DNA of 64,000 nt, from contig JBDTME010000002.1 of the NCBI GenBank assembly GCA_039934415.1, positions 92,746 to 156,745 on the forward strand. Reading direction: 5' to 3'. The position numbers were made by a program, and so were the translations under genes. Shown piece after piece: positions 681 through 47,365 of this stretch (position 1 is the stretch's first letter; the number at the start of each line of letters is the position of its first letter). The notes beneath the pieces are model-generated. The model saw nothing but the letters and a program-made list of their open reading frames with translations, searched no databases and was not told where the DNA came from. Origin of the DNA: Patescibacteria group bacterium (GTDB lineage: Bacteria > Patescibacteriota > Microgenomatia > UBA1400 > PJMF01).

Positions 681-1055
681 TTATGGGGCGATACCCGTAA
701 TTTTAGGATTCAAAATGAAAGTTGGATCGCCAAAGATAACAAAGCTGGCGACGGCAGTAATCGTAAATGAGCTCACGATAATCACTAATCCAATTAGACT
801 CATGTAAATACTTTGCCAGGCGGTTTCGACAGCTTTCACATCATTCGAAGCAGTGATGTACTTAAAACCAGCCATGATGAGGTTGAAAAGTGACCAAATA
901 CCGGCGATGACAGTAATTAACTTAATGATGTTGGATGCAAAAACGACAATACCGATTTGACCAGCAGCCAGACCTGTTTGATAAGACGCAACACCTGGAG
1001 GAGCTTGAATTGTCCCCCACAGTGAGTCTGCAATTAAGGTACTGAGTAAGAACAT
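681..1055 (-). CDS. T4SS pilin-like protein paralog
   Basis: A 124-aa, two-helix small membrane protein of the same size and topology as its neighbours, arranged in tandem with them. Confidence 0.45.
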   Translation of the reverse strand: MFLLSTLIADSLWGTIQAPPGVASYQTGLAAGQIGIVVFASNIIKLITVIAGIWSLFNLIMAGFKYITASNDVKAVETAWQSIYMSLIGLVIIVSSFTITAVASFVIFGDPTFILNPKITGIAP

Positions 1056-1073
1056 ATGTTTCTTGCGACCAAT

Positions 1074-1394
1074 TTATAAAATCTTCAATCCGGTTAACAA
1101 CTCGACGACTTGAATGATCCAGTACGCACTGAACATCACTACAAACCCAATCAACGCTGATGTAATCTTTTTTTGTCCCTCTTCCACACTCTTTGTTGAT
1201 TCTGAGGAAATTATACTCAATCCACCTGCAATCATCAAGAAAAGAAATATTACCCCTGCTAACAAGAAAATATTAGGCACAATCAGATTAATCAGGGAAC
1301 CCAAATCCTTATACTGTTCACCAACTGACTGAGTGTCGTTGATCTTAATTGCAGTCCCAAGGTCAATAGAGGCTAACAGATTTGACATACTCAC
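1074..1394 (-). CDS. T4SS pilin-like protein paralog
   Basis: A 106-aa protein with IAGGLSIISSESTKSVEEGQKKITSALIGFVVMF between two hydrophobic segments, the same architecture as 290..676. Confidence 0.5.
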   Translation of the reverse strand: MSMSNLLASIDLGTAIKINDTQSVGEQYKDLGSLINLIVPNIFLLAGVIFLFLMIAGGLSIISSESTKSVEEGQKKITSALIGFVVMFSAYWIIQVVELLTGLKIL

Positions 1395-4004: not shown

Positions 4005-4976
4005 ATGACACTAATTACTGCTTCTGCACCAGGGAAACTATTATTGTATGGCGACCATGCGGTCGTGTACGGAAAACCGTGCATCGTAACGGCGGTTGAC
4101 CAACGAGTGCACGTCACTGTTAAAAAAAATGGCGTCGATACTTTCCATCTCGATGCACCTGATCTAGGCCTGACAGCATATTCAAAAACAATCAACGATC
4201 TCGGTCAAAAAGAACTCCCGAAATCTGTAGCTTTTATCGAAATTTGTTACAAACGATTTTTGGAAAAATACCCACAACAAGAAGGGATAGTAGTTACGAC
4301 TAAAAGTGACTTTTCTTCTCTGTTTGGTTTTGGCTCGAGCAGTGCCGTCACCGTTGCCTTTGCCAAAGCATTAACAACTTTATATGGGATCACACTGACA
4401 AATAAAGAACTATTTAATCTTTGTTACCAAGCGGTGATCGATGTCCAAGGAGTTGGCTCTGGTTTTGATATCGCTGCGGCAATCTGGGGTGGAACAATCT
4501 ATTACGTCACGCCCGCAAAAGTTGTAAAAGTAGTTTCGTGCCCAGAACTCCCACTAATAGTCGGATATACCGGAGTAAAAGCAGACACCCCCACCTTAAT
4601 TCGGATGGTGGAGTCGCTCAAACAACAAGATTCTTCGAAAATTAAAACGATCTTTAATCATATGTCTAACATTGTTGATGCTGCCTTTCAAACCATTAGT
4701 GAAAGTAATTGGGAAAAAGCTGGAAAACTCATGAATCAGAATCAGCTACTGTTGAGAGAACTTCAAGTAAGTAGCGTAAAATTAGAGTCATTGATTGAAG
4801 CCGCAATTACAGCAGGAGCTTATGGCGCAAAATTGTCAGGTGCCGGTGGAGGAGACTGCATGATTGCTCTTTGCGACAAGAAATATGTAACACCGATAGC
4901 AACTGCAATTGAAAAAGCAGGTGGAAAATATATGGATGTCAACCTCAATGCGCAAGGAGTCAGAATTGAAAAATAA
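4005..4976 (+). CDS. mvk: mevalonate kinase (GHMP kinase family)
   Basis: The N-terminal motif APGKLLLYGDHAVVYGKP is the mevalonate kinase signature. The GHMP ATP-binding loop GFGSSSAV and the C-terminal GAKLSGAGGGDC are present. Confidence 0.8.
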   Translation: MTLITASAPGKLLLYGDHAVVYGKPCIVTAVDQRVHVTVKKNGVDTFHLDAPDLGLTAYSKTINDLGQKELPKSVAFIEICYKRFLEKYPQQEGIVVTTKSDFSSLFGFGSSSAVTVAFAKALTTLYGITLTNKELFNLCYQAVIDVQGVGSGFDIAAAIWGGTIYYVTPAKVVKVVSCPELPLIVGYTGVKADTPTLIRMVESLKQQDSSKIKTIFNHMSNIVDAAFQTISESNWEKAGKLMNQNQLLLRELQVSSVKLESLIEAAITAGAYGAKLSGAGGGDCMIALCDKKYVTPIATAIEKAGGKYMDVNLNAQGVRIEK

Positions 4977-5958
4977 ACTCATCAAAACTACTGCAAAAGC
5001 TTCCTCTGATGTCGCGCTCATCAAATACTGGGGCAAAAAAGATGAAAGCCTGAGACTGCCAGAAAACAGTAGCATCTCTTTGATTTTGGATGGTTTAGAC
5101 ACTGTCACCACAGTTGAGTTTCAAGAAAAACTTACTGAAGATTTGATAACAATTCAAGGAGAGAGTGAAGAAGGTGAGGCATCGCGAGTCAAACAACACT
5201 TGGATCGTATTCGAAAACTAGCTGGCTTGAACATGTACGCAAAAGTAGTTTCAAATAACACCTTTCCAAAAGGAACTGGCTTATCAAGTTCTGGCTCTGG
5301 TTTTGCAGCACTCACGTACTCCGCAACTAAAGCAGCTGGACTTGATTTATCTGAAAAAGAGTTGAGTATTTTATCTCGACAAGGCTCGGGGACAGCATGT
5401 CGATGTGCGTGTGGAGGGATCGTTCAGTGGAAAGATGGTGACACTTCCGAAACTTCTTTTTCAAAAAGTCTGTATCCCTCCGATTACTGGGATATCCGCG
5501 ACGTGATCGCAGTCGTCGACGAAGGAAAGAAAAACACTTCATCAACTCAAGGTCATGCCACAGCCCAAACGAGTGTCTTTTACCAAGCACGCCAAGAAAA
5601 TTTAGATAAAAAAATTGGTGCATTAAAAAATGCTTTGACCAAAAAAGACTTTTCAAAACTGGGTGCCATTGTTGAAGCAGAAGCACTTGAATTTCATTCG
5701 ATTTTATTAACTAGTCATCCTCCTTTAGTTGCCTGGTACCCTGGAACAATTGCTGTGATGTTAGAAGTACAAGCAATGAGAAAAGATGGAATAGAAGCGT
5801 ATTTTACGATCAACACCGGTTTCAACGTTCACATTTTAACGACGCCTGAATTTGAAAAAAAAGTTCAAAAAAGAATTGAGCAGTTGCCGTTAGTGAAAAA
5901 AACCTTGTCCGCAACCATCGGTGAAAAACCCACATTTTCATCAACACACTTATTTTAA
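4936..5958 (+). CDS. mvaD: diphosphomevalonate decarboxylase
   Basis: VALIKYWGKKDE plus GTGLSSSGSGFAALT match the MVD family. The ORF opens at 4909; a start at 4936 or 4948 overlaps the mvk stop by only a few codons. Confidence 0.8.
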   Translation: MSTSMRKESELKNKLIKTTAKASSDVALIKYWGKKDESLRLPENSSISLILDGLDTVTTVEFQEKLTEDLITIQGESEEGEASRVKQHLDRIRKLAGLNMYAKVVSNNTFPKGTGLSSSGSGFAALTYSATKAAGLDLSEKELSILSRQGSGTACRCACGGIVQWKDGDTSETSFSKSLYPSDYWDIRDVIAVVDEGKKNTSSTQGHATAQTSVFYQARQENLDKKIGALKNALTKKDFSKLGAIVEAEALEFHSILLTSHPPLVAWYPGTIAVMLEVQAMRKDGIEAYFTINTGFNVHILTTPEFEKKVQKRIEQLPLVKKTLSATIGEKPTFSSTHLF

Positions 5959-21225: not shown

Positions 21226-21537
21226 TTAATTTTTAGAAAAGTGGCCTTGGGGATTTCTCACTTCCTCTAGAGATTTCACAAGCTGTTGAATGTATGCACG
21301 CTCCTGAGCCTCTCTCGCAGTTACCTGCATAAAGGCTTTACGGGTACACCGAGATAATTTGTGATCTATGGGTTTTTTAATATATGTTTGATTTAAATCC
21401 ATCGCGGCAGACTCAGTTTTTGAGTAAGGAGATACAGGCGAATCAAGATACAACCTTCCATTCGCTACCGATGAGTACAGCTTTGCACCTTCTACAAATG
21501 TTTGTAACAACCTAGAAAATAAGCTTCGTTCTTTCAT
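21226..21537 (-). CDS. hypothetical protein
   Basis: A 103-aa ORF with no motif. Confidence 0.3.
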   Translation of the reverse strand: MKERSLFSRLLQTFVEGAKLYSSVANGRLYLDSPVSPYSKTESAAMDLNQTYIKKPIDHKLSRCTRKAFMQVTAREAQERAYIQQLVKSLEEVRNPQGHFSKN

Positions 21538-21609
21538 AGTCTTCCTTCAATTGCCGATTGTAACACGTCACTAAGGTTCTGCTCGCTTAAGTTAAAAGCT
21601 TTTATTCTG

Positions 21610-21618
21610 TGATATAAT
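21610..21618 (+). promoter_or_regulatory. extended -10 promoter element TGATATAAT
   Basis: TGnTATAAT match. It would initiate a ~450-nt leader upstream of valS. Confidence 0.45.
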
Positions 21619-21624
21619 TTCCTC

Positions 21625-21950
21625 AATAACATGACCGACTAGTCATCGGCAGTCCGTTAAGGACTGATTTGAGAGGAAAACTTTTTAACTGAGCAAAATC
21701 GCAGAGCGTGTTTACAAAAGACACGTGAAAAACAACCCCCTACAGGAGGAAAAAAACTGCGTGAAAATCTATTTTAAATAGAGTTTGATGCTTGGTTCTA
21801 AGTGAGTAGAACTCAACGGGTACGCCCGTTACAGCAGCAACAAAGTCTCGCTTCGGCGAGAGAAGTACGATGGTACCGAGTGCTTAGTTTGTAAACACTC
21901 TCGTATATACTCAGATTATTGAGTGTATAGGAGAGTGTTTTTTTTGACTT
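21625..21950 (+). ncRNA. candidate T-box leader (valine-specific) preceding valS
   Basis: It lies between the promoter and the terminator. A hairpin CCGA-CUAGUCA-UCGG exposes GUC+A (Val codon plus purine). A UUCG-capped hairpin is CUCGCUUCGGCGAG. A degenerate T-box GAUGGUACCGAG (UGGU would pair with ACCA of tRNA-Val) sits about 13 nt before the terminator's 5' arm. Confidence 0.4.
21893..21947 (+). terminator. intrinsic terminator: ~21-bp imperfect stem, GATT loop, then T8
   Basis: AAACACTCTCGTATATACTCA-GATT-TGAGTGTATAGGAGAGTGTTT followed by TTTTTTTT, 125 nt upstream of the valS ATG. Its position suggests an attenuator. Confidence 0.75.
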
Positions 21951-22071
21951 GACTGATACACTTTTCAAATCAGTTAAGTCAGATTGCGAGGTCTGGCGAA
22001 GTGTGAGGAGCCAGACTAAGCAAGATCATAAAAATCAAGTATTTGAGACAATCAAGTATTAAAGGAAAACT

Positions 22072-24369
22072 ATGGAAAAAAACTTTGATCACGCTCAACA
22101 AGAAGCAGCCATGTACGATCTTTGGGAAAAAGCGGAGGCGTTCAATCCAGACAGAATGCAAACAAAAAAGAAGACAGAAAGTGGTCGAGTCAAGTCAAAG
22201 CAGTTTTCAATCATCATGCCACCTCCCAACGCAAATGATCCGTTACACGTGGGTCATGCAATGTTTATCTCAGTAGAAGATATTTTAATTCGTTATCACC
22301 GGATGAAAGGTGACGACACGGTCTGGATTCCAGGCACAGATCATGCCGGCATCGAAACACAGTTCGTATTTGAAAAGAAATTAGCTAAACAAGGCAAAAG
22401 TCGATTTAACTTTGATCGAGATACTTTATACAAAATGATTTGGGACTACGTCCAAGAAAACTCCGGTGTGGCAGTAGATCAAATGAAGAAGTTAGGTGCA
22501 AGTGCAGATTGGTCTCGCTTTAAGTTCACACTCGATCCATCTGTTGTTGATTTCGTCGTGCAAACATTTCAAAAAATGCACGATGACGGACTAGTCTATC
22601 GAGATTTAAAACTGGTTAATTACTGCACTCACTGTGGCACGAGTTACTCTGAATTAGAAGTAAACCACACGGAGCAAACGACAAACCTGTATTACATTAA
22701 ATATCCTATGGCAGACGATCCCAATGAACACATTGTTGTCGCTACCACTCGACCAGAGCCGATTTTCGCAGACCAGTATTTAGCTGTGCATCCAGACGAC
22801 TCTTCAAAACAACATTTAATTGGAAAAAAGGTTTTGAATCCGCTCACAAAACAACCGATGGAGATCATTGCCGATTCGTTTGTGGACCCAGAGTTTGGTA
22901 CGGGAATTGTCAAACTCACACCAGCCCATGACTTCACAGACTTTGAAGTTGCTCAACGACATCATCTGCCTCTTGTACCTGCCATTGGTTTGGATGGGAA
23001 AATCTTGGAAAACGGTGGGGAGTTTGCAGGCTTAAAAGTTGCAGAAGCCAGAAAAAAAGTGGTAGAGGTCTTGGAAAAAGCAAATCTGATCGAGAAAATT
23101 AATTCGCAATATGTAAATCGCATCGGAACCTGTTATCGATGCGGTCGAATCATTGAGATCCTTCCACTCCCTCAATTTTTTATCAAAGTAAAAGATCAAA
23201 AAAACAATTTAACGCAAAAAGTGTTGGATGTTTTAGACAAGCAAGAAACCAAGATTTATGGAGCTGGTCGAGAAAAGATTTTGAGAAACTGGTTAGAAAA
23301 CTTAAAAGATTGGAATATTAGTCGCCAGATTGTGTGGGGCATTCGAATCCCTGTCTGGTATGAGATCACAGGGAACGAAGAGAAAATTTCAGTCACATTT
23401 ATTAACTCAAAAGGTGAGTTTCAAAAAACCGCCACACTACAAAAAAGACTCGATGAAGGCTATTCAATAGATGAAATTAAAAAAGGCTTGCAGCAAGTCT
23501 ACGCTCCTGCTGAGAATCATTTTGTTGTATCTGAAAAAAATCCAGGCGAGACATACCTCCCAGAAACAGATACTTTCGATACTTGGTTTTCTTCTGGTCA
23601 GTGGCCAATAGTGACGTTGAAAACAAACAAAGAAAATGATTTTGATCGTTTCTACCCCACGACAGTCATGGAAACTGCATACGATATTTTACTTTTTTGG
23701 GTAATGCGGATGATGATGATGGGCGTGTACTTGGAAAATAAAACCCCATTTGCACACGTCTATTTGCACGGGCTTGTGCGTGATGAAAAAGGTCAAAAAA
23801 TGAGTAAGAGTAAAGGGAATGTCATAAATCCTTTAGAGTTTGTAAATAAATATGGAGCTGATGCCGTCAGAATGGCTTTGATCATGTCCTCTACTCCAGG
23901 CTCTGATTCAGCGGTTGGTGAAAGTAAGATTCGAGGCATGCGAAATTTTTCAAATAAAATTTGGAATGCGGTGAGATTTATTTTATTAACTCTGGAAGAT
24001 GAATCACAAAATCACTCTGAAAAAAATCTAGACTCGGTTAAAGATCAGGCCTTTGAAAAGAAACTGAACGAGGTTGTTGGACAAGTCACAGATCAACTTG
24101 AAAAACTAAAAGTTGGAATGGCGGCAGAGATAGCCTACAACGAATTCTGGCACTGGTTTTGTGACGAGTGTATTGAAGAGCAAAAAAAAGGAAACCTTTC
24201 ACGCGATGCATTGTTAAAAGGCTTAATCACATTTTTGCGACTTCTCCATCCTTTTGCACCATTCGTAACTGAAACCGTTTGGCAAGAATTGTGGAACAAT
24301 GGTGATGAGCAGCTGAAAAAACAATTAGGAAGTAAGTTGTTGATCGTAGCTGAGTGGCCAACAGAATAA
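22072..24369 (+). CDS. valS: valine--tRNA ligase (short form without a C-terminal coiled coil)
   Basis: Class I HIGH (PLHVGHAM) and KMSKS (KMSKSKGN) motifs. The editing-domain and anticodon-binding regions are present. 765 aa. Confidence 0.85.
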   Translation: MEKNFDHAQQEAAMYDLWEKAEAFNPDRMQTKKKTESGRVKSKQFSIIMPPPNANDPLHVGHAMFISVEDILIRYHRMKGDDTVWIPGTDHAGIETQFVFEKKLAKQGKSRFNFDRDTLYKMIWDYVQENSGVAVDQMKKLGASADWSRFKFTLDPSVVDFVVQTFQKMHDDGLVYRDLKLVNYCTHCGTSYSELEVNHTEQTTNLYYIKYPMADDPNEHIVVATTRPEPIFADQYLAVHPDDSSKQHLIGKKVLNPLTKQPMEIIADSFVDPEFGTGIVKLTPAHDFTDFEVAQRHHLPLVPAIGLDGKILENGGEFAGLKVAEARKKVVEVLEKANLIEKINSQYVNRIGTCYRCGRIIEILPLPQFFIKVKDQKNNLTQKVLDVLDKQETKIYGAGREKILRNWLENLKDWNISRQIVWGIRIPVWYEITGNEEKISVTFINSKGEFQKTATLQKRLDEGYSIDEIKKGLQQVYAPAENHFVVSEKNPGETYLPETDTFDTWFSSGQWPIVTLKTNKENDFDRFYPTTVMETAYDILLFWVMRMMMMGVYLENKTPFAHVYLHGLVRDEKGQKMSKSKGNVINPLEFVNKYGADAVRMALIMSSTPGSDSAVGESKIRGMRNFSNKIWNAVRFILLTLEDESQNHSEKNLDSVKDQAFEKKLNEVVGQVTDQLEKLKVGMAAEIAYNEFWHWFCDECIEEQKKGNLSRDALLKGLITFLRLLHPFAPFVTETVWQELWNNGDEQLKKQLGSKLLIVAEWPTE

Positions 24370-33759: not shown

Positions 33760-35364
33760 CTATTCGTATGCTGTTATTTGTTCAGTTGGAACTCCACCCG
33801 AGAGTGATGTTCTGACTGCCTGGACTTGGGTTCGTAATTCTTCATTTGCGGGAAGTGCCTCTTCAATTTTTTTGACTGCGTGCATGACGCTGGTGTGATC
33901 ACGATCTCCGAAGTAACGGCCAATCTCAGCAAATGGTAAATCTAAGTGGTGTTTGATCAGGTACATGGCGATGTGTCGTGCATTGGCGATTGGCTTTGAT
34001 CGTTTTGGCCCTTTGATATCCATGAGTTTGATGTGGTATTGATTGGAAATTGTTTTAATAATTTCAAGTGGTTTGGCGTAGATCTTTTCTTGTTTTTGAT
34101 CAGTGACCTGGTGTTGTCGCAAAATTTCTTGAACGAGATCATGGGTAATTGGTTTGTGGCGCAGGACGTGTTCTGAGTGGAGAGCTTTGACGATGCCTTC
34201 AAGTTTTCGAGTACTGGTGATGGCTGATGCAATGCGCTGAGCGATATCCATGGGAATCGAAAACTGAATTTGTTTGGCTTTGATCAACACAATCGCAATA
34301 CGTAACTCGAAAGACGGTTGTTGAATGTCGATGCTGAGTCCGCCTTCTAATCGTGATTGGATACGATCGTCCAGTGGACTGATTTCGTGTGGAGGCCGAT
34401 CGGAAGTTAGAATAACTTGGCCACGCGATTTCAACACTGAGTTAAAGGTGTGGAAAAACTCTTCTTGCATGGCGCGTTTCCCAGCCATGAACTGAATGTC
34501 ATCAATCAGTAAAATTTGCACCGATCGGTATCGCTGTTTCATCTGGATTGTTTTTTTTGTCTGAATCGCCTCCACAATCTCATTCATAAACTCTTCACCT
34601 GTTCGATAAATCATCGTGAAGTTTTGGTTGTTTTTTAAAATGTTTTGGCCAACGGCCTGCATCAGGTGTGTTTTGCCGACACCCACACCTCCATAGAGAA
34701 AGAGTACGTTATACGCTTTGCCCGGGTTTTGAGAGACTGCAACGGCTGCAGCGTGTGCCATTTCATTGGTGGATGAGACCGCGAACGTATCAAAAGTATA
34801 ATTTTTATTCAAGCCAGCTTGCTGGATTTTATAATCCACCAAATCTTCACCAGCTTGTTGAATACTAGCTTGGGAGAAAAGTGAAGCCACCGTGGGCGAA
34901 GATGGTTCATCAAGCGCTGTCTGATTCTCAGGCACATTGAGTTCTAATGATTGTTGGTCGATAGAAGTGGCTTTGCGCGATTTATGGGGAGTTGTAGGAA
35001 GAGTAAAATCGCCGACCTTGAGCTTGAGTTCAACCGGTTTTTCCACAATGGCACTAATGCAGTCTGTAATCGCAGCCTTGAAGCTTTTTTCAATGATTGA
35101 GATATGAAAAGAAGTAGGGGACTCAATCGTGCAAATCACTTTGTCCTCGACCTCTTGAACATCCGACAAGACATTCGGGAAAATCCAGGTTTTAAATACC
35201 CCTTGGGAAAGGTTGGCAGCAAGTTCTGCACAGACTTTTCCCCATAGCTCTTCAGGTGAGTAGATCATAGATTGAAATAGGTTTTTCTTGAGGAAGCTCT
35301 GATAAAATTGGGGCAGGAGATCGTACTTTTCCACACTATACACTGAGTTTTGCACAATGCGCAA
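33760..35364 (-). CDS. dnaA: chromosomal replication initiator protein DnaA
   Basis: AAA+ Walker A GGVGVGKTHLMQA, Walker B LLIDDIQF and a C-terminal DnaA-box-binding HTH region. Confidence 0.9.
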   Translation of the reverse strand: MRIVQNSVYSVEKYDLLPQFYQSFLKKNLFQSMIYSPEELWGKVCAELAANLSQGVFKTWIFPNVLSDVQEVEDKVICTIESPTSFHISIIEKSFKAAITDCISAIVEKPVELKLKVGDFTLPTTPHKSRKATSIDQQSLELNVPENQTALDEPSSPTVASLFSQASIQQAGEDLVDYKIQQAGLNKNYTFDTFAVSSTNEMAHAAAVAVSQNPGKAYNVLFLYGGVGVGKTHLMQAVGQNILKNNQNFTMIYRTGEEFMNEIVEAIQTKKTIQMKQRYRSVQILLIDDIQFMAGKRAMQEEFFHTFNSVLKSRGQVILTSDRPPHEISPLDDRIQSRLEGGLSIDIQQPSFELRIAIVLIKAKQIQFSIPMDIAQRIASAITSTRKLEGIVKALHSEHVLRHKPITHDLVQEILRQHQVTDQKQEKIYAKPLEIIKTISNQYHIKLMDIKGPKRSKPIANARHIAMYLIKHHLDLPFAEIGRYFGDRDHTSVMHAVKKIEEALPANEELRTQVQAVRTSLSGGVPTEQITAYE

Positions 35365-35791: not shown

Positions 35792-37729
35792 CTACCCTTG
35801 TGTCTGTTGTTTTCGATCCGCTAACACTTTTGCTTGGGCGGCTTGTTGGTCGTTCATTTTTTGTTTGGCGAGTAATTCTTCTGGGTTGGTCGTAATCAGT
35901 TGATGTTCAGTGTCTGAAGCAATGACGCGCAGCGCCACGTGATTTTGACCAGCAAAGAAAATTCCTTCTCCCACATCTGAAGCTAAGAGTAGTCGTTGTT
36001 CACCTTCCGAAAGATAGAATGTTTGGGTCAAAATAGGCATCGAGGCACTTGATTGTTTCATCAAGAATTGAATCGAAGAGTTGGTCACGATGGCTTTGCC
36101 GTAATCGTTATTCAAGAAATCCTCTACATCCTGAGTGATTGTGGTAATACCCAAGAAGTATTTTCTGGCGCGTTTGGCGATGGAGTGGAGGAATGAGGCC
36201 GAATCGGCATACTTCATGAAGTACCACGCCTCATCAACAATCAAAATTCTTTTTTTCAGTTTTTTCTTTACACGAGTCCAGATAAAGTCCAAGATCATGA
36301 ACATTGCAATTGGACGCAGTTCTTCGTGTAAATCTTTAACCGAAAAAACCGTAAACGCGTTATGAATATCTAGATTTGATTTTTGGTCAAAAATACCGCG
36401 GAATGAACCTTTAATAAATTTCTCCAGTCGAGCAGATAAATTGAGCGCGTCTTGCGTCTCCATACCAATCAGGGCTTTATACAAGTCTTCCATTAATGGA
36501 GGCTCATTGGCTTGAGTTGCTGGATCTGGAGTAATGCCTTTGGCTTTATATGCTGCTACCAACGCTTGATCAAGAATAGCGTCTTCGGTTGGAGTCATCT
36601 CGCCCATCATCACTCTCAACAATGTGTGCAAAGAAATGATTTTTTGGCCTAGCTCGTTTTCGCCTTCTTCATAAACATTCGATAAATCAAATGGGTTGAT
36701 CTTGGTAGTGGCGCCGAAAGTGAAGTTAATATACTCGCCACCGACTGATTTACACAACTCTTCATACTCATGTTCAGGATCGAGAATCAAAATGTCCGCA
36801 CCAAAAATGAGTTGACGGAGGGCTTCGAGTTTAATTGTATATGATTTTCCAGCACCAGATTTGGCAAAGACGACCATGTTAGCATTTTCCAAACTGAATC
36901 GGTCAAAAATAACCAACGAACCATTATGCTCATTTAGACCATACACAATCCCATTATCTTGAGTCAATTCTGAAGACGTAAATGGAAACGTCGTTGCTAA
37001 AGAAGTCGTGTCCATGTTGCGCGTGATGAGTAACCGATCAACTCCCATTGGGAGTGTTGTTTTGAAACCATCTTCCATTTGTAGAGATGCTTTTTTGGAC
37101 ACAATGAGCAAACTTCCCAGCAATGATTGGAGTTGTTTACTACTACTCTCAAGCTTTTCTTTCGAGGTGTCCATTAACGTACAGTACAGACCAAACTGAT
37201 AGAAACGCTCAGAGCCTTTGGCGAGCTGTTCTTGCAGGGTGCGCGCATCTTCGAGCTTCACTTCCGTATTAATGTTGCTAATTTTCCCCGAACGAATGTC
37301 TGACTGAATTTCCGCTTCCATCTCCGTAATTTTGCGACGAAGATTGTCCAGAATCTTGTCGACCTCTTGGGGAAATATGTACATGCTAATATCGAGACGG
37401 TGCGGAAAATTAATTAACGGTGACAACCAATTTGCCGGGACTGTTCTGGGATACCCGGCGATGAAAAAGGTTCTAGTGTAAGTCGAGTTGATTTTTTGAT
37501 AAGTAAAGTCGACCTCAATTGCTTCTGGGGCGATGATGTCCTGAATGCTCACCAATCCTTGCGCAAACTGTTTCAAGACCTTCTGGTTTTCCAGGTCTTG
37601 TGTTGCTTTCTGTTGCTCTTCTTGAGAAACGGGTTTCTTTTTCAAAAAGGGCAGTGGTAGGTTGATTGAGAATTTGGGCATCACTCGATTAATTATCCAT
37701 GCCTGGTTGTGGCGTACTTGGCATTTCAC
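35792..37729 (-). CDS. type IV secretion system ATPase, VirB4/TrbE/PrgJ family
   Basis: Walker A VVFAKSGAGKSYT, Walker B RILIVDEAWYF and an overall 645-aa VirB4-like domain organisation. Confidence 0.8.
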   Translation of the reverse strand: MKCQVRHNQAWIINRVMPKFSINLPLPFLKKKPVSQEEQQKATQDLENQKVLKQFAQGLVSIQDIIAPEAIEVDFTYQKINSTYTRTFFIAGYPRTVPANWLSPLINFPHRLDISMYIFPQEVDKILDNLRRKITEMEAEIQSDIRSGKISNINTEVKLEDARTLQEQLAKGSERFYQFGLYCTLMDTSKEKLESSSKQLQSLLGSLLIVSKKASLQMEDGFKTTLPMGVDRLLITRNMDTTSLATTFPFTSSELTQDNGIVYGLNEHNGSLVIFDRFSLENANMVVFAKSGAGKSYTIKLEALRQLIFGADILILDPEHEYEELCKSVGGEYINFTFGATTKINPFDLSNVYEEGENELGQKIISLHTLLRVMMGEMTPTEDAILDQALVAAYKAKGITPDPATQANEPPLMEDLYKALIGMETQDALNLSARLEKFIKGSFRGIFDQKSNLDIHNAFTVFSVKDLHEELRPIAMFMILDFIWTRVKKKLKKRILIVDEAWYFMKYADSASFLHSIAKRARKYFLGITTITQDVEDFLNNDYGKAIVTNSSIQFLMKQSSASMPILTQTFYLSEGEQRLLLASDVGEGIFFAGQNHVALRVIASDTEHQLITTNPEELLAKQKMNDQQAAQAKVLADRKQQTQG

Positions 37730-46261: not shown

Positions 46262-47365
46262 TTACAGCCTGATTATATCAGCGTTTTTCAGCTCTGGCAT
46301 TTGTAGGACTTCTTCTTCAGCGCTGGTCATAATAGTTTGAGTGGTTTTGGCGAGTTCGAGTACACGCAGACGATTTTCTTTATCGAGTTCTGAAAAAATA
46401 TCATCTAGGAGGAGCAGTGGAGTTTTGCCGAGTGTTTTGCGGATAATTTCAAATGACCCGAGTTTGAGCCAGAGCACGCCCATCCGTTGTTGACCACGGG
46501 AGCCATGCGTGAAGAGCGGTGATCTGACTGAGTGAGAATTTTTAACAATTGAAAATTGTACAATAATGTCGTCTTTATGCGGACCGACCAGTGTGTGACC
46601 GGCTGCGATTTCTTGGTTTGAGTATTGTTCGAGGCGAGCAGGACTCAACAAAGAAAGATCATACTCGATCTGAAATTGGAGTGGGAACTCAATGCCGTTT
46701 AAATGGTCGATGAGTTCGCGTCGCTTATCTTGTAGATACATGCCATGTTTTAACAAGGATAAATTCCAAAAGCTTAGAGTCGTACGCGGTGCCTCGCCTT
46801 CACGAATTTGTTGTAATAATCGATTACGTCTTCGCAAGGTTTGTTCATAAGTAGACAGAGCAGTCAAGTATTGTTGATCAATTTGAGTAAGAACTGTGTC
46901 TAAAAATTCGCGGCGCCGAGACGGGCTACCGGTAATTAACCGAAGATCCTCTGGAATAAATGCGATAGTGGGAACTAAACCCACAATGCCGCGTTTTTGT
47001 TTGCGCACGCCATTGAGGGAAAAGATTTTTTTGGAGACTCGTTTACCAGAAACGAGGCCAGGATTGAGCAACAGTTCAATTTCTAATTGTTCGCTCTCTT
47101 CATTGGCTTGGTGTGTCTTTTCTGTTTGATGATCGTTGAGTAGCGTTTTCATCTTAATCCGGGCCAACTCTTGTTCGACTTCGATAAAATCATCGACAGT
47201 TCCTGACCGAAAGCTTTCGCCTGTAGATAGTAAGTGGATCGCTTCTAGTAAATTGGTTTTGCCGAACGCGTTGGGTGCTACAAACACCGTTAATGGTTTG
47301 GTAAATAAAAACGTTTTGTTTTGATAATTACGAAAGTGCTGAAGAGAGACGCCTGTGAGAAACAT
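46262..47365 (-). CDS. recF: DNA replication and repair protein RecF
   Basis: The N-terminal LQHFRNYQ...FVAPNAFGKTNLLEAI Walker A, the SMC-like signature region and the C-terminal Walker B LLLDDIFSELD. Confidence 0.85.
   Translation of the reverse strand: MFLTGVSLQHFRNYQNKTFLFTKPLTVFVAPNAFGKTNLLEAIHLLSTGESFRSGTVDDFIEVEQELARIKMKTLLNDHQTEKTHQANEESEQLEIELLLNPGLVSGKRVSKKIFSLNGVRKQKRGIVGLVPTIAFIPEDLRLITGSPSRRREFLDTVLTQIDQQYLTALSTYEQTLRRRNRLLQQIREGEAPRTTLSFWNLSLLKHGMYLQDKRRELIDHLNGIEFPLQFQIEYDLSLLSPARLEQYSNQEIAAGHTLVGPHKDDIIVQFSIVKNSHSVRSPLFTHGSRGQQRMGVLWLKLGSFEIIRKTLGKTPLLLLDDIFSELDKENRLRVLELAKTTQTIMTSAEEEVLQMPELKNADIIRL

Follow-up and report, generated by a model that had tools for sequence, protein, structure and literature searches.

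A putative valine-specific T-box riboswitch with an ultrashort Stem I in the valS leader of a Patescibacteria group bacterium

T-box riboswitches with an ultrashort Stem I are known from ileS leaders of actinobacteria, for which reviews cite Sherwood et al. 2015. These elements form a class of their own (class II), act on translation and are represented by the ileS leaders of Mycobacterium tuberculosis and Nocardia farcinica (PMC7583486, PMC11297988). The hosts of T-boxes in general are Firmicutes, Actinobacteria, Chloroflexi, Deinococcus-Thermus and a few Proteobacteria (PMC2494555, TBDB preprint), and the class II model of TBDB was searched in Actinobacteria only (TBDB). Here we describe the leader of valS, the gene for valyl-tRNA synthetase (ValRS), in a stretch of 64,000 nt from a Patescibacteria group bacterium (contig JBDTME010000002.1, positions 92,746 to 156,745), hereafter called the window. 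This leader is very probably a T-box riboswitch for tRNA-Val (anticodon GAC) that controls valS via transcription attenuation.

Like the actinobacterial ileS T-boxes, the valS leader has its specifier and the conserved purine in the apical loop of a short 5′-proximal hairpin. It shares with them the lack of a K-turn and of the elbow-binding double T-loop, the presence of a Stem II S-turn and a Stem IIA hairpin, and a discriminator with the standard UGGN bulge; an internal specifier loop is missing from its Stem I as well. It differs from the actinobacterial elements in gene and codon (valS and GUC instead of ileS and AUC), in its host, which belongs to the Patescibacteria, and in its expression platform, which is an intrinsic terminator instead of a Shine-Dalgarno sequestrator. 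Moreover, it possesses an extra hairpin between Stem I and Stem II and, in the clade of the window, a distal Stem II expansion of 116 nt.

With the Firmicutes leaders of the Rfam family RF00230, such as those of tyrS and valS in Bacillus subtilis, the leader has in common a terminator and an antiterminator that share a strand, the T-box sequence, the AGUA/GAA S-turn of Stem II, the CGUUA F-box and Stem III. That an aminoacyl-tRNA synthetase gene is controlled through its cognate tRNA, as predicted here, is a further likeness. Unlike those leaders, it is devoid of the long Stem I with K-turn, internal specifier loop, AGAGA bulge and UGxRA distal loop. The glyQS leader is another naturally reduced T-box that continues to terminate transcription, as is predicted for the window. 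However, glyQS has kept the long Stem I and lost Stem II, whereas the window shows the opposite, and unlike both, only two relatives, L045 and L068, appear to be without long Stem I and Stem II alike.

For the comparative analysis, 80 Patescibacteria valS loci from a scan of genome contigs were combined with closer loci found by exact protein lookup (loci are given by L numbers). The resulting set of leaders comprised 24 sequences, namely the window and 23 relatives carrying a T-box upstream of valS, and all 24 keep the GUCA loop, the UGGUACC bulge and the flanking helices. UGGUACC was present 48–190 nt upstream of valS in 16 of the 80 loci, each of which also had a short hairpin with the 7-nt loop NNNGUCA. 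The same elements are carried by L081, L082, L083, L205, L206/207, L208 and L209, whose ValRS proteins are 64–74% identical. The ValRS of the window is 100% identical to the protein of a metagenome-assembled genome (MAG) designated "Patescibacteria group bacterium", and its best relatives all come from MAGs of the candidate phyla radiation (CPR).

When 22 leaders were aligned on the loop of the 5′-proximal hairpin, GUCA was the sole invariant block, and the four inner pairs of the stem were kept in nearly all of the 21 distinct sequences. The stem occurs as ccga/tcgg, ccgg/ccgg, tcgg/ccga, gtctga/tcagac, tcgagg/cttcgg, cgag/ctcg, agag/ctct and in other forms. Cells with a double change numbered 41 vs 16.4 in shuffled alignments, and none of 500 shuffles reached the observed score. 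As a control, the partner column was slid, upon which pairing fell from 78% to 29–44%. Because GUCA is invariant and the stem covaries in the 22 leaders, the GUC-A hairpin is taken to be the specifier hairpin; it lies about 17 nt from the predicted transcription start site. GUC accounts for 29% of the valine codons in 12 open reading frames (ORFs) of the window and is among the two commonest of them, and NNC specifiers are the commonest class in TBDB (TBDB preprint).

The T-box sequence ACGAUGGUACCGAG departs from the consensus AGGGUGGNACCGCG (PMC11297988) at three helix positions, the partners of which pair. Together with its 3′ partner strands it forms an antiterminator composed of the helices A1 and A2 around a 7-nt bulge. 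Antiterminator and terminator are mutually exclusive, since both use positions 21896–21904. The terminator hairpin has a folding energy of −28.7 kcal/mol, compared with −8.7 ± 2.4 kcal/mol for shuffled sequences (z = −8.3, 0 of 200), and the valS start codon (ATG at 22072) follows 126 nt past its U-run. It is conserved with compensatory changes in the near clade, i.e. the six closest leaders (window, L081, L082, L083, L205 and L206). Including Stem III, the antiterminator fold reaches −14.6 kcal/mol and the terminator fold −38.0 kcal/mol; for a transcript ending at 21913 the fold of minimum free energy is the antiterminator. This pair is the classic default-off T-box arrangement. The entire leader folds with z = −5.7 relative to shuffles.

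In an unrestricted automatic search, 22 of 23 leaders displayed A1, bulge and A2, the 3′ strands of the two helices being contiguous; L003 did so once the search range had been narrowed. Nine distinct combinations of A1 and A2 were obtained, for instance ACGA..GAGUG, CGAGG..GCC, AAGG..ACGAAC and GCGG..GUCUUU, so that the two helices vary between subgroups yet always pair. This search was aimed at complementarity and is therefore partly circular; nevertheless, helices of 9–12 bp within 75 nt in every sequence are not expected by chance.

A preliminary description, made from the letters of the window alone, had proposed a strong intrinsic terminator shortly before valS, a degenerate T-box with UGGU on the 5′ side of the terminator arm and a UUCG-capped helix. 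All of these are present: the terminator has a stem of 20 bp with one mismatch, and the UUCG-capped helix corresponds to Stem III. An alternative pairing that includes the UGGU bulge, which that description had asked for, exists and competes with the terminator for its strand.

A permissive Rfam scan of positions 21400–22200 (801 nt) yielded the T-box model RF00230 on the + strand at 21676–21907; the match spans the whole model and scores 40.7 bits (E = 1.7e-7). Posterior probabilities are high in the 3′ two-thirds, which comprise AGUA of Stem II, ACGGG..CCCGUUA, Stem III and AAGUACGAUGGUACCGAGUG. In contrast, the alignment is poor in the part assigned to Stem I, where non-canonical pairs are flagged and the specifier position holds GAA-AAU-C, thus an Asn codon and not a Val codon. 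Sub-threshold matches to the same model were also found in L042 (44.8 bits), L045, L083 and L208, with scores of 32.9–44.8 bits. Leaders so far under the Rfam gathering threshold would be overlooked by standard annotation.

Further claims of the preliminary description were borne out as well. The search with the covariance model (CM) gave a T-box, although below the gathering score, and the loop presenting GUC-A is supported as specifier by the comparative data, contrary to the Rfam alignment. The extended −10 promoter can be read in the sequence, the downstream gene is valS by its protein family match, the same leader precedes valS in relatives, and the T-box does lie outside the Firmicutes, in a host belonging to the Patescibacteria. 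The ultrashort Stem I architecture and the Stem II expansion of ~116 nt had been overlooked.

Stem II is most easily recognized in relatives without the expansion (L003, L208, L209 and the Collierbacteria type), in which it consists of a lower helix, RRGAAA opposite AGUAGAR, and an apical hairpin. RRGAAA opposite AGUAGAR is the S-turn signature of Stem II. In 15 distinct leaders anchored on the S-turn motifs the lower 5 bp covary, with 18 double-change cells vs 5.2 in shuffles (0 of 500) and with variants UUGAG/CUCAA, CCAAG/CUUGG, GGG/CCC, GGGG/CCCC, GAGG/CCUC and GGAAA/UUUCC. On the 5′ side, UUGAGRGGAAAAC is invariant in the near clade. Because covarying strands of Stem II flank positions 21684–21799, this segment is assigned to a Stem II expansion and not to Stem I. 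The expansion is limited to the six near-clade leaders and absent from the insertion-less relatives named above; over the whole set of leaders, variable insertions measure 0–250 nt. The upper helix of Stem II is kept in all six, including one compensatory change from A-U to U-A, and over the whole proposed structure 96.4% of the near-clade cells are paired, vs 26–49% when slid. Stem IIA aligns to the RF00230 consensus CGg...cCGUUA and is invariant in the near clade, and a search by eye gave no clear covariation pattern for a Stem IIA/B pseudoknot. Stem III is variable among the relatives and missing in L082.

Taken together, these elements suggest the following course of events. Transcription would start ~7 nt after the extended −10 element, and the 4-bp hairpin would form first, its apical loop offering GUC and the following A to the tRNA anticodon. 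By analogy to actinobacterial ileS T-boxes of solved structure, Stem II with its loop-E/S-turn (AGGAAAA opposite GAGUAGAA) and Stem IIA might then clamp the codon-anticodon duplex. The UGGU of the antiterminator bulge would pair with the free 3′ ACCA of uncharged tRNA-Val, and this pairing could hold the weak antiterminator long enough for the polymerase to pass. With charged tRNA or without tRNA, the far more stable terminator would be expected to form, and transcription would stop at the U8 tract, 126 nt before valS. The binding of tRNA, its identity and the regulatory outcome are what we infer from the conserved elements.

Several observations weigh against such a riboswitch. A scan of the whole window at the Rfam gathering thresholds gave no match at all, and the RF00230 score of 40.7 bits is far under the gathering score of 93, unlike the Firmicutes leaders of that family. 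Transcriptional T-boxes generally need a long Stem I for fast capture of the tRNA (PMC7583486). No T-box was found upstream of valS in the close relatives L204, L210 and L211, nor in 64 of the 80 loci. The window contains no tRNA genes, and ARAGORN detected no tRNA-Val in the fetched valS loci (L001–L083 and L204–L208). Finally, in the window an alternative hairpin AUGAC/GUCAU (21631–35 with 21642–46) would bury the specifier codon and is isoenergetic with Stem I (−13.5 vs −13.3 kcal/mol); this hairpin is unconserved and absent from the relatives.

The sub-threshold score, the patchy distribution among relatives and the missing elbow-binding module, which transcriptional T-boxes are said to need (PMC7583486), would all fit a T-box that has decayed or been re-purposed, with no sensing of tRNA and with a constitutive partial terminator or control by a protein or another ligand. 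We regard this as improbable: specifier loop, S-turn, bulge and alternative helices are invariant or compensatory in spite of the divergence of ValRS (just 66–74% identity), and their retention across diverged leaders points to selection for tRNA contacts, which would otherwise be unexpected. The global alignment to RF00230, which places model positions 1–98 on the segment 21676–21775, could instead mean that this segment is a canonical long Stem I with an internal-loop specifier, to which the GUC-A hairpin is unrelated, all the more as each CGUGAAAA motif in it contains GUG-A, a Val codon followed by a purine. Yet the model flags non-canonical pairs at the foot of its Stem I, reading of the sequence revealed no K-turn, AGAGA bulge or distal loop, and the specifier of the model (21764–21770, GAA-AAU-C) would be AAU or AAC (Asn), followed by a pyrimidine. 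Furthermore, the segment is gone from L003, L208, L209 and the Collierbacteria-type leaders, all of which retain the GUCA hairpin, and covariation puts it within Stem II, so that a long Stem I at this place is very unlikely.

The Stem I architecture itself is known from translational T-boxes (PMC7583486), and in the relatives L045 and L031 the strand released from A1 pairs with the Shine-Dalgarno sequence. Translational control as in the actinobacterial ileS leaders nevertheless has a very slim chance of applying to the window, where U8 follows the 20-bp stem of the alternative hairpin and the Shine-Dalgarno sequence lies ~117 nt beyond the terminator, outside both folds. As to an ordinary stand-alone terminator or a small RNA that resembles a T-box by chance, the sub-threshold Rfam score is all that speaks for it, and it can practically be dismissed. 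The upstream gene (21226–21537, minus strand) is transcribed away from the hairpin, the CM E-value of 1.7e-7 contradicts a chance match, and the valS leaders of relatives have conserved the complete set of T-box elements, with covarying Stem I and Stem II. We thus retain the tRNA-Val-responsive T-box acting on transcription as the reading of this leader.

If functional, this T-box brings ultra-small, metabolically reduced bacteria into the known host range of tRNA-sensing riboswitches and constitutes a character that CPR have in common with the Gram-positive/Chloroflexi side of the bacterial tree. The ultrashort Stem I with an apical-loop specifier would then not be peculiar to actinobacterial ileS, and the rule that a transcription-terminating T-box requires a long, elbow-binding Stem I would face a counter-example from nature. 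A full-text search, which did not cover most subscription journals and hence yields absence of evidence, found no publication linking T-boxes with Patescibacteria or CPR. The T-box as such is of a known kind; the data support the novelty of the combination of an ultrashort Stem I, valine specificity, coupling to a terminator and a host among the Patescibacteria.

The expansion of Stem II raises the question of a substitute for the missing Stem I module. Most of its sequence has diverged among the six near-clade leaders, and single-sequence folding of these six gave no common fold beyond the outer helix. Its two conserved G-UGAAA-AN-Y motifs fit the T-loop consensus UGxRA. In tRNA, the T-loop is closed by G53-C61. 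A pyrimidine stands two bases past the UGAAA motif in 10 of 11 instances and could close the loop against the preceding G. It is therefore conceivable, albeit doubtful, that the expansion replaces the double T-loop of Stem I as the contact to the tRNA elbow in the near clade. If true, a module that docks to the elbow would have arisen anew on another stem, letting a T-box with an ultrashort Stem I act co-transcriptionally.

The features of the leader are compiled in Table 1. TGnTATAAT of the promoter is invariant in an alignment of the six closest leaders and has a fixed distance from the specifier hairpin. A simple sigma-70 consensus scan missed the promoter at 21610–21618, because a good −35 element is lacking. 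The transcription start is predicted near 21625. Likewise, a consensus terminator scan missed the + strand terminator, presumably because the G.G mismatch splits the stem, the part above it having only two G-C pairs, as judged from the criteria of the tool. In L003, L208 and L209 the site of the linker hairpin is occupied by a different hairpin.

Table 1. Features of the valS leader and the valS gene in the window (positions refer to the 64,000-nt stretch).
Feature	Position	Strand	Details	Basis
Extended −10 promoter TGATATAAT	21610-21618	+	TG-A-TATAAT	sequence reading
Ultrashort Stem I	21635..21649	+	4-bp CCGA/UCGG, 7-nt apical loop CUAGUCA	comparative alignment
Specifier GUC (Val)	21642-21644	+	conserved purine A at 21645; within Stem I apical loop	
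Linker hairpin	21650..21666	+	CAGUCC-GUUAA-GGACUG, abuts Stem I	folding
Stem II, 5′ strand	21669..21683	+	UUGAG 21669-73; S-turn half AGGAAAA 21674-80; ACUU 21680-83	
Distal Stem II expansion	21684..21799	+	116 nt, clade-specific	near-clade alignment
Conserved CACGUGAAAA	21722-21731	+	in Stem II expansion; invariant in 6/6 near-clade leaders	
Second CGUGAAAA motif	21760-21767	+	in Stem II expansion; present in 5/6 near-clade leaders	
Stem II, 3′ strand	21800..21816	+	AAGU 21800-03; S-turn half GAGUAGAA 21804-11; CUCAA 21812-16	
Stem IIA hairpin	21817..21831	+	CGGG-UACG-CCCG and UUA (F-box-like CCCGUUA)	high-posterior RF00230 alignment
Stem III	21846..21861	+	6 bp (21846-21851 with 21856-21861), UUCG tetraloop	reading, CM alignment, folding
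T-box ACGAUGGUACCGAG	21867-21880	+		sequence reading, CM alignment
Antiterminator	21867..21904	+		CM alignment, folding, automatic helix search
A1	21867-70 with 21901-04	+	ACGA/UCGU	
T-box bulge	21871-77	+	UGGUACC, 7 nt; UGGU would pair with tRNA 3′ ACCA	
A2	21878-82 with 21896-21900	+	GAGUG/CACUC	
Intrinsic terminator	21893..21945	+	20 bp and one G.G mismatch, loop GAUUAU, U8; stem 21893-21940, U8 at 21938-21945	folding
Rest of leader	21946..22071	+	two hairpins (21946-21980, ~21984-22023) and Shine-Dalgarno	
Shine-Dalgarno AAGGA	22062-22066	+		sequence reading
valS	22072..24369	+	765 aa	NCBIfam NF004349, 793 bits (cutoff 704)

The valS product matches positions 1–697 of the 860 positions of the NF004349 profile and is without the C-terminal coiled-coil part. 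No second aminoacyl-tRNA synthetase was recognized among the 10 large window ORFs tested. A regular-expression search of the whole window gave 16 further matches to UGGNACC, most of which lie inside ORFs according to their coordinates.

Terminators with U-runs occur in the window, the near clade and the Collierbacteria type. In L045, the hairpin pairs the released A1 strand with the Shine-Dalgarno sequence AGGAGG and has no U-run. Folding of L031 showed an alternative hairpin that contains the Shine-Dalgarno sequence (AAGGAG) and is followed by a U-run ending at the ATG; transcription and translation alike could be blocked by this hairpin. A comparable U-run reaches the ATG in L042, L052 and L025; on reading, L042 and L052 resemble L031, and Shine-Dalgarno pairing in these three leaders was judged by eye. 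In L045 (1826–1926) and L068 (2330–2400), one of them from Amesbacteria and the other from Collierbacteria, just 35 nt separate the GUCA hairpin from the bulge, and both leaders seem to be without Stem II, Stem IIA/B, Stem III and long Stem I. If functional, these two would be the smallest T-boxes and would contradict the report that a truncated Stem I makes Stem II necessary (PMC7583486). The transcriptional, translational and mixed platforms, together with the apparently Stem II-less forms, provide a compact natural series on the modules that a T-box requires.

Additional valS loci obtained by the lookups P0005, P0011 and P0017 were without a T-box. A scan of metagenomes for AGTAGAMCTCAACGGG returned 120 stretches, eight of them with UGGNACC nearby, and no further member of the near clade was among these stretches. 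Seven of the eight were inspected and comprised two canonical T-boxes with a long Stem I, two short-type ileS leaders and three apparently chance matches. On the metagenome contigs L137 (~4960–5330, +) and L130 (~960–1180, reverse strand) the same architecture was observed upstream of ileS-like genes, with the apical loops AUAUCA or CGAUCAA (AUC and A), AGUAGAMCUCAACGGG and the UGGUACC bulge, plus a terminator in L137.

Some leaders harbour additional hairpins. L081 (2095–2135), L082 (2125–2165) and L083 (2120–2155) have a terminator-like hairpin with a U6–7 run after it, located between Stem I and Stem II; AAAACCGCUUUUUUAUAGCGGAUUUUUU is an example. The window has a plain hairpin there. The two hairpins directly after the window terminator, GACUUGACUGAU/AUCAGUUAAGUC and GGUCUGGC/GCCAGACU, belong to a segment of 83 nt (21946–22028) that is 87% identical to L206/L207, the ValRS of which is just 66% identical. 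Other copies of this segment were found neither in the window nor in the remaining loci, and it might represent a second element of the leader or else a shared insertion. A hairpin repeat of the forms UAUAGAUUCCGG...CCGGAAUGACA and GGAUUGCC...GCAAUGACAA recurs in the valS leaders of L058, L068, L072, L073, L080 and L206, inside the apical loop of Stem II and also downstream of T-box terminators. It resembles a small element of these genomes that is mobile or prone to insertion.

Elsewhere in the window, dnaA and recF are present (coordinates noted: 33760–35364, 35792–37729 and 46262–47365, all on the minus strand), and the replication origin region is therefore probably near. A VirB4-like conjugal-transfer ATPase (NF045971, 374 bits) adjoins dnaA, which hints at an integrated conjugative element. 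Among the contigs used for comparison, L002, L003, L005, L010 and others encode a Patescibacteria-like ValRS and are labelled 'uncultured Pseudomonadales', 'Limisphaerales', 'Methylococcaceae' or 'Vitreimonas'; the labels of these MAG records are apparently wrong.

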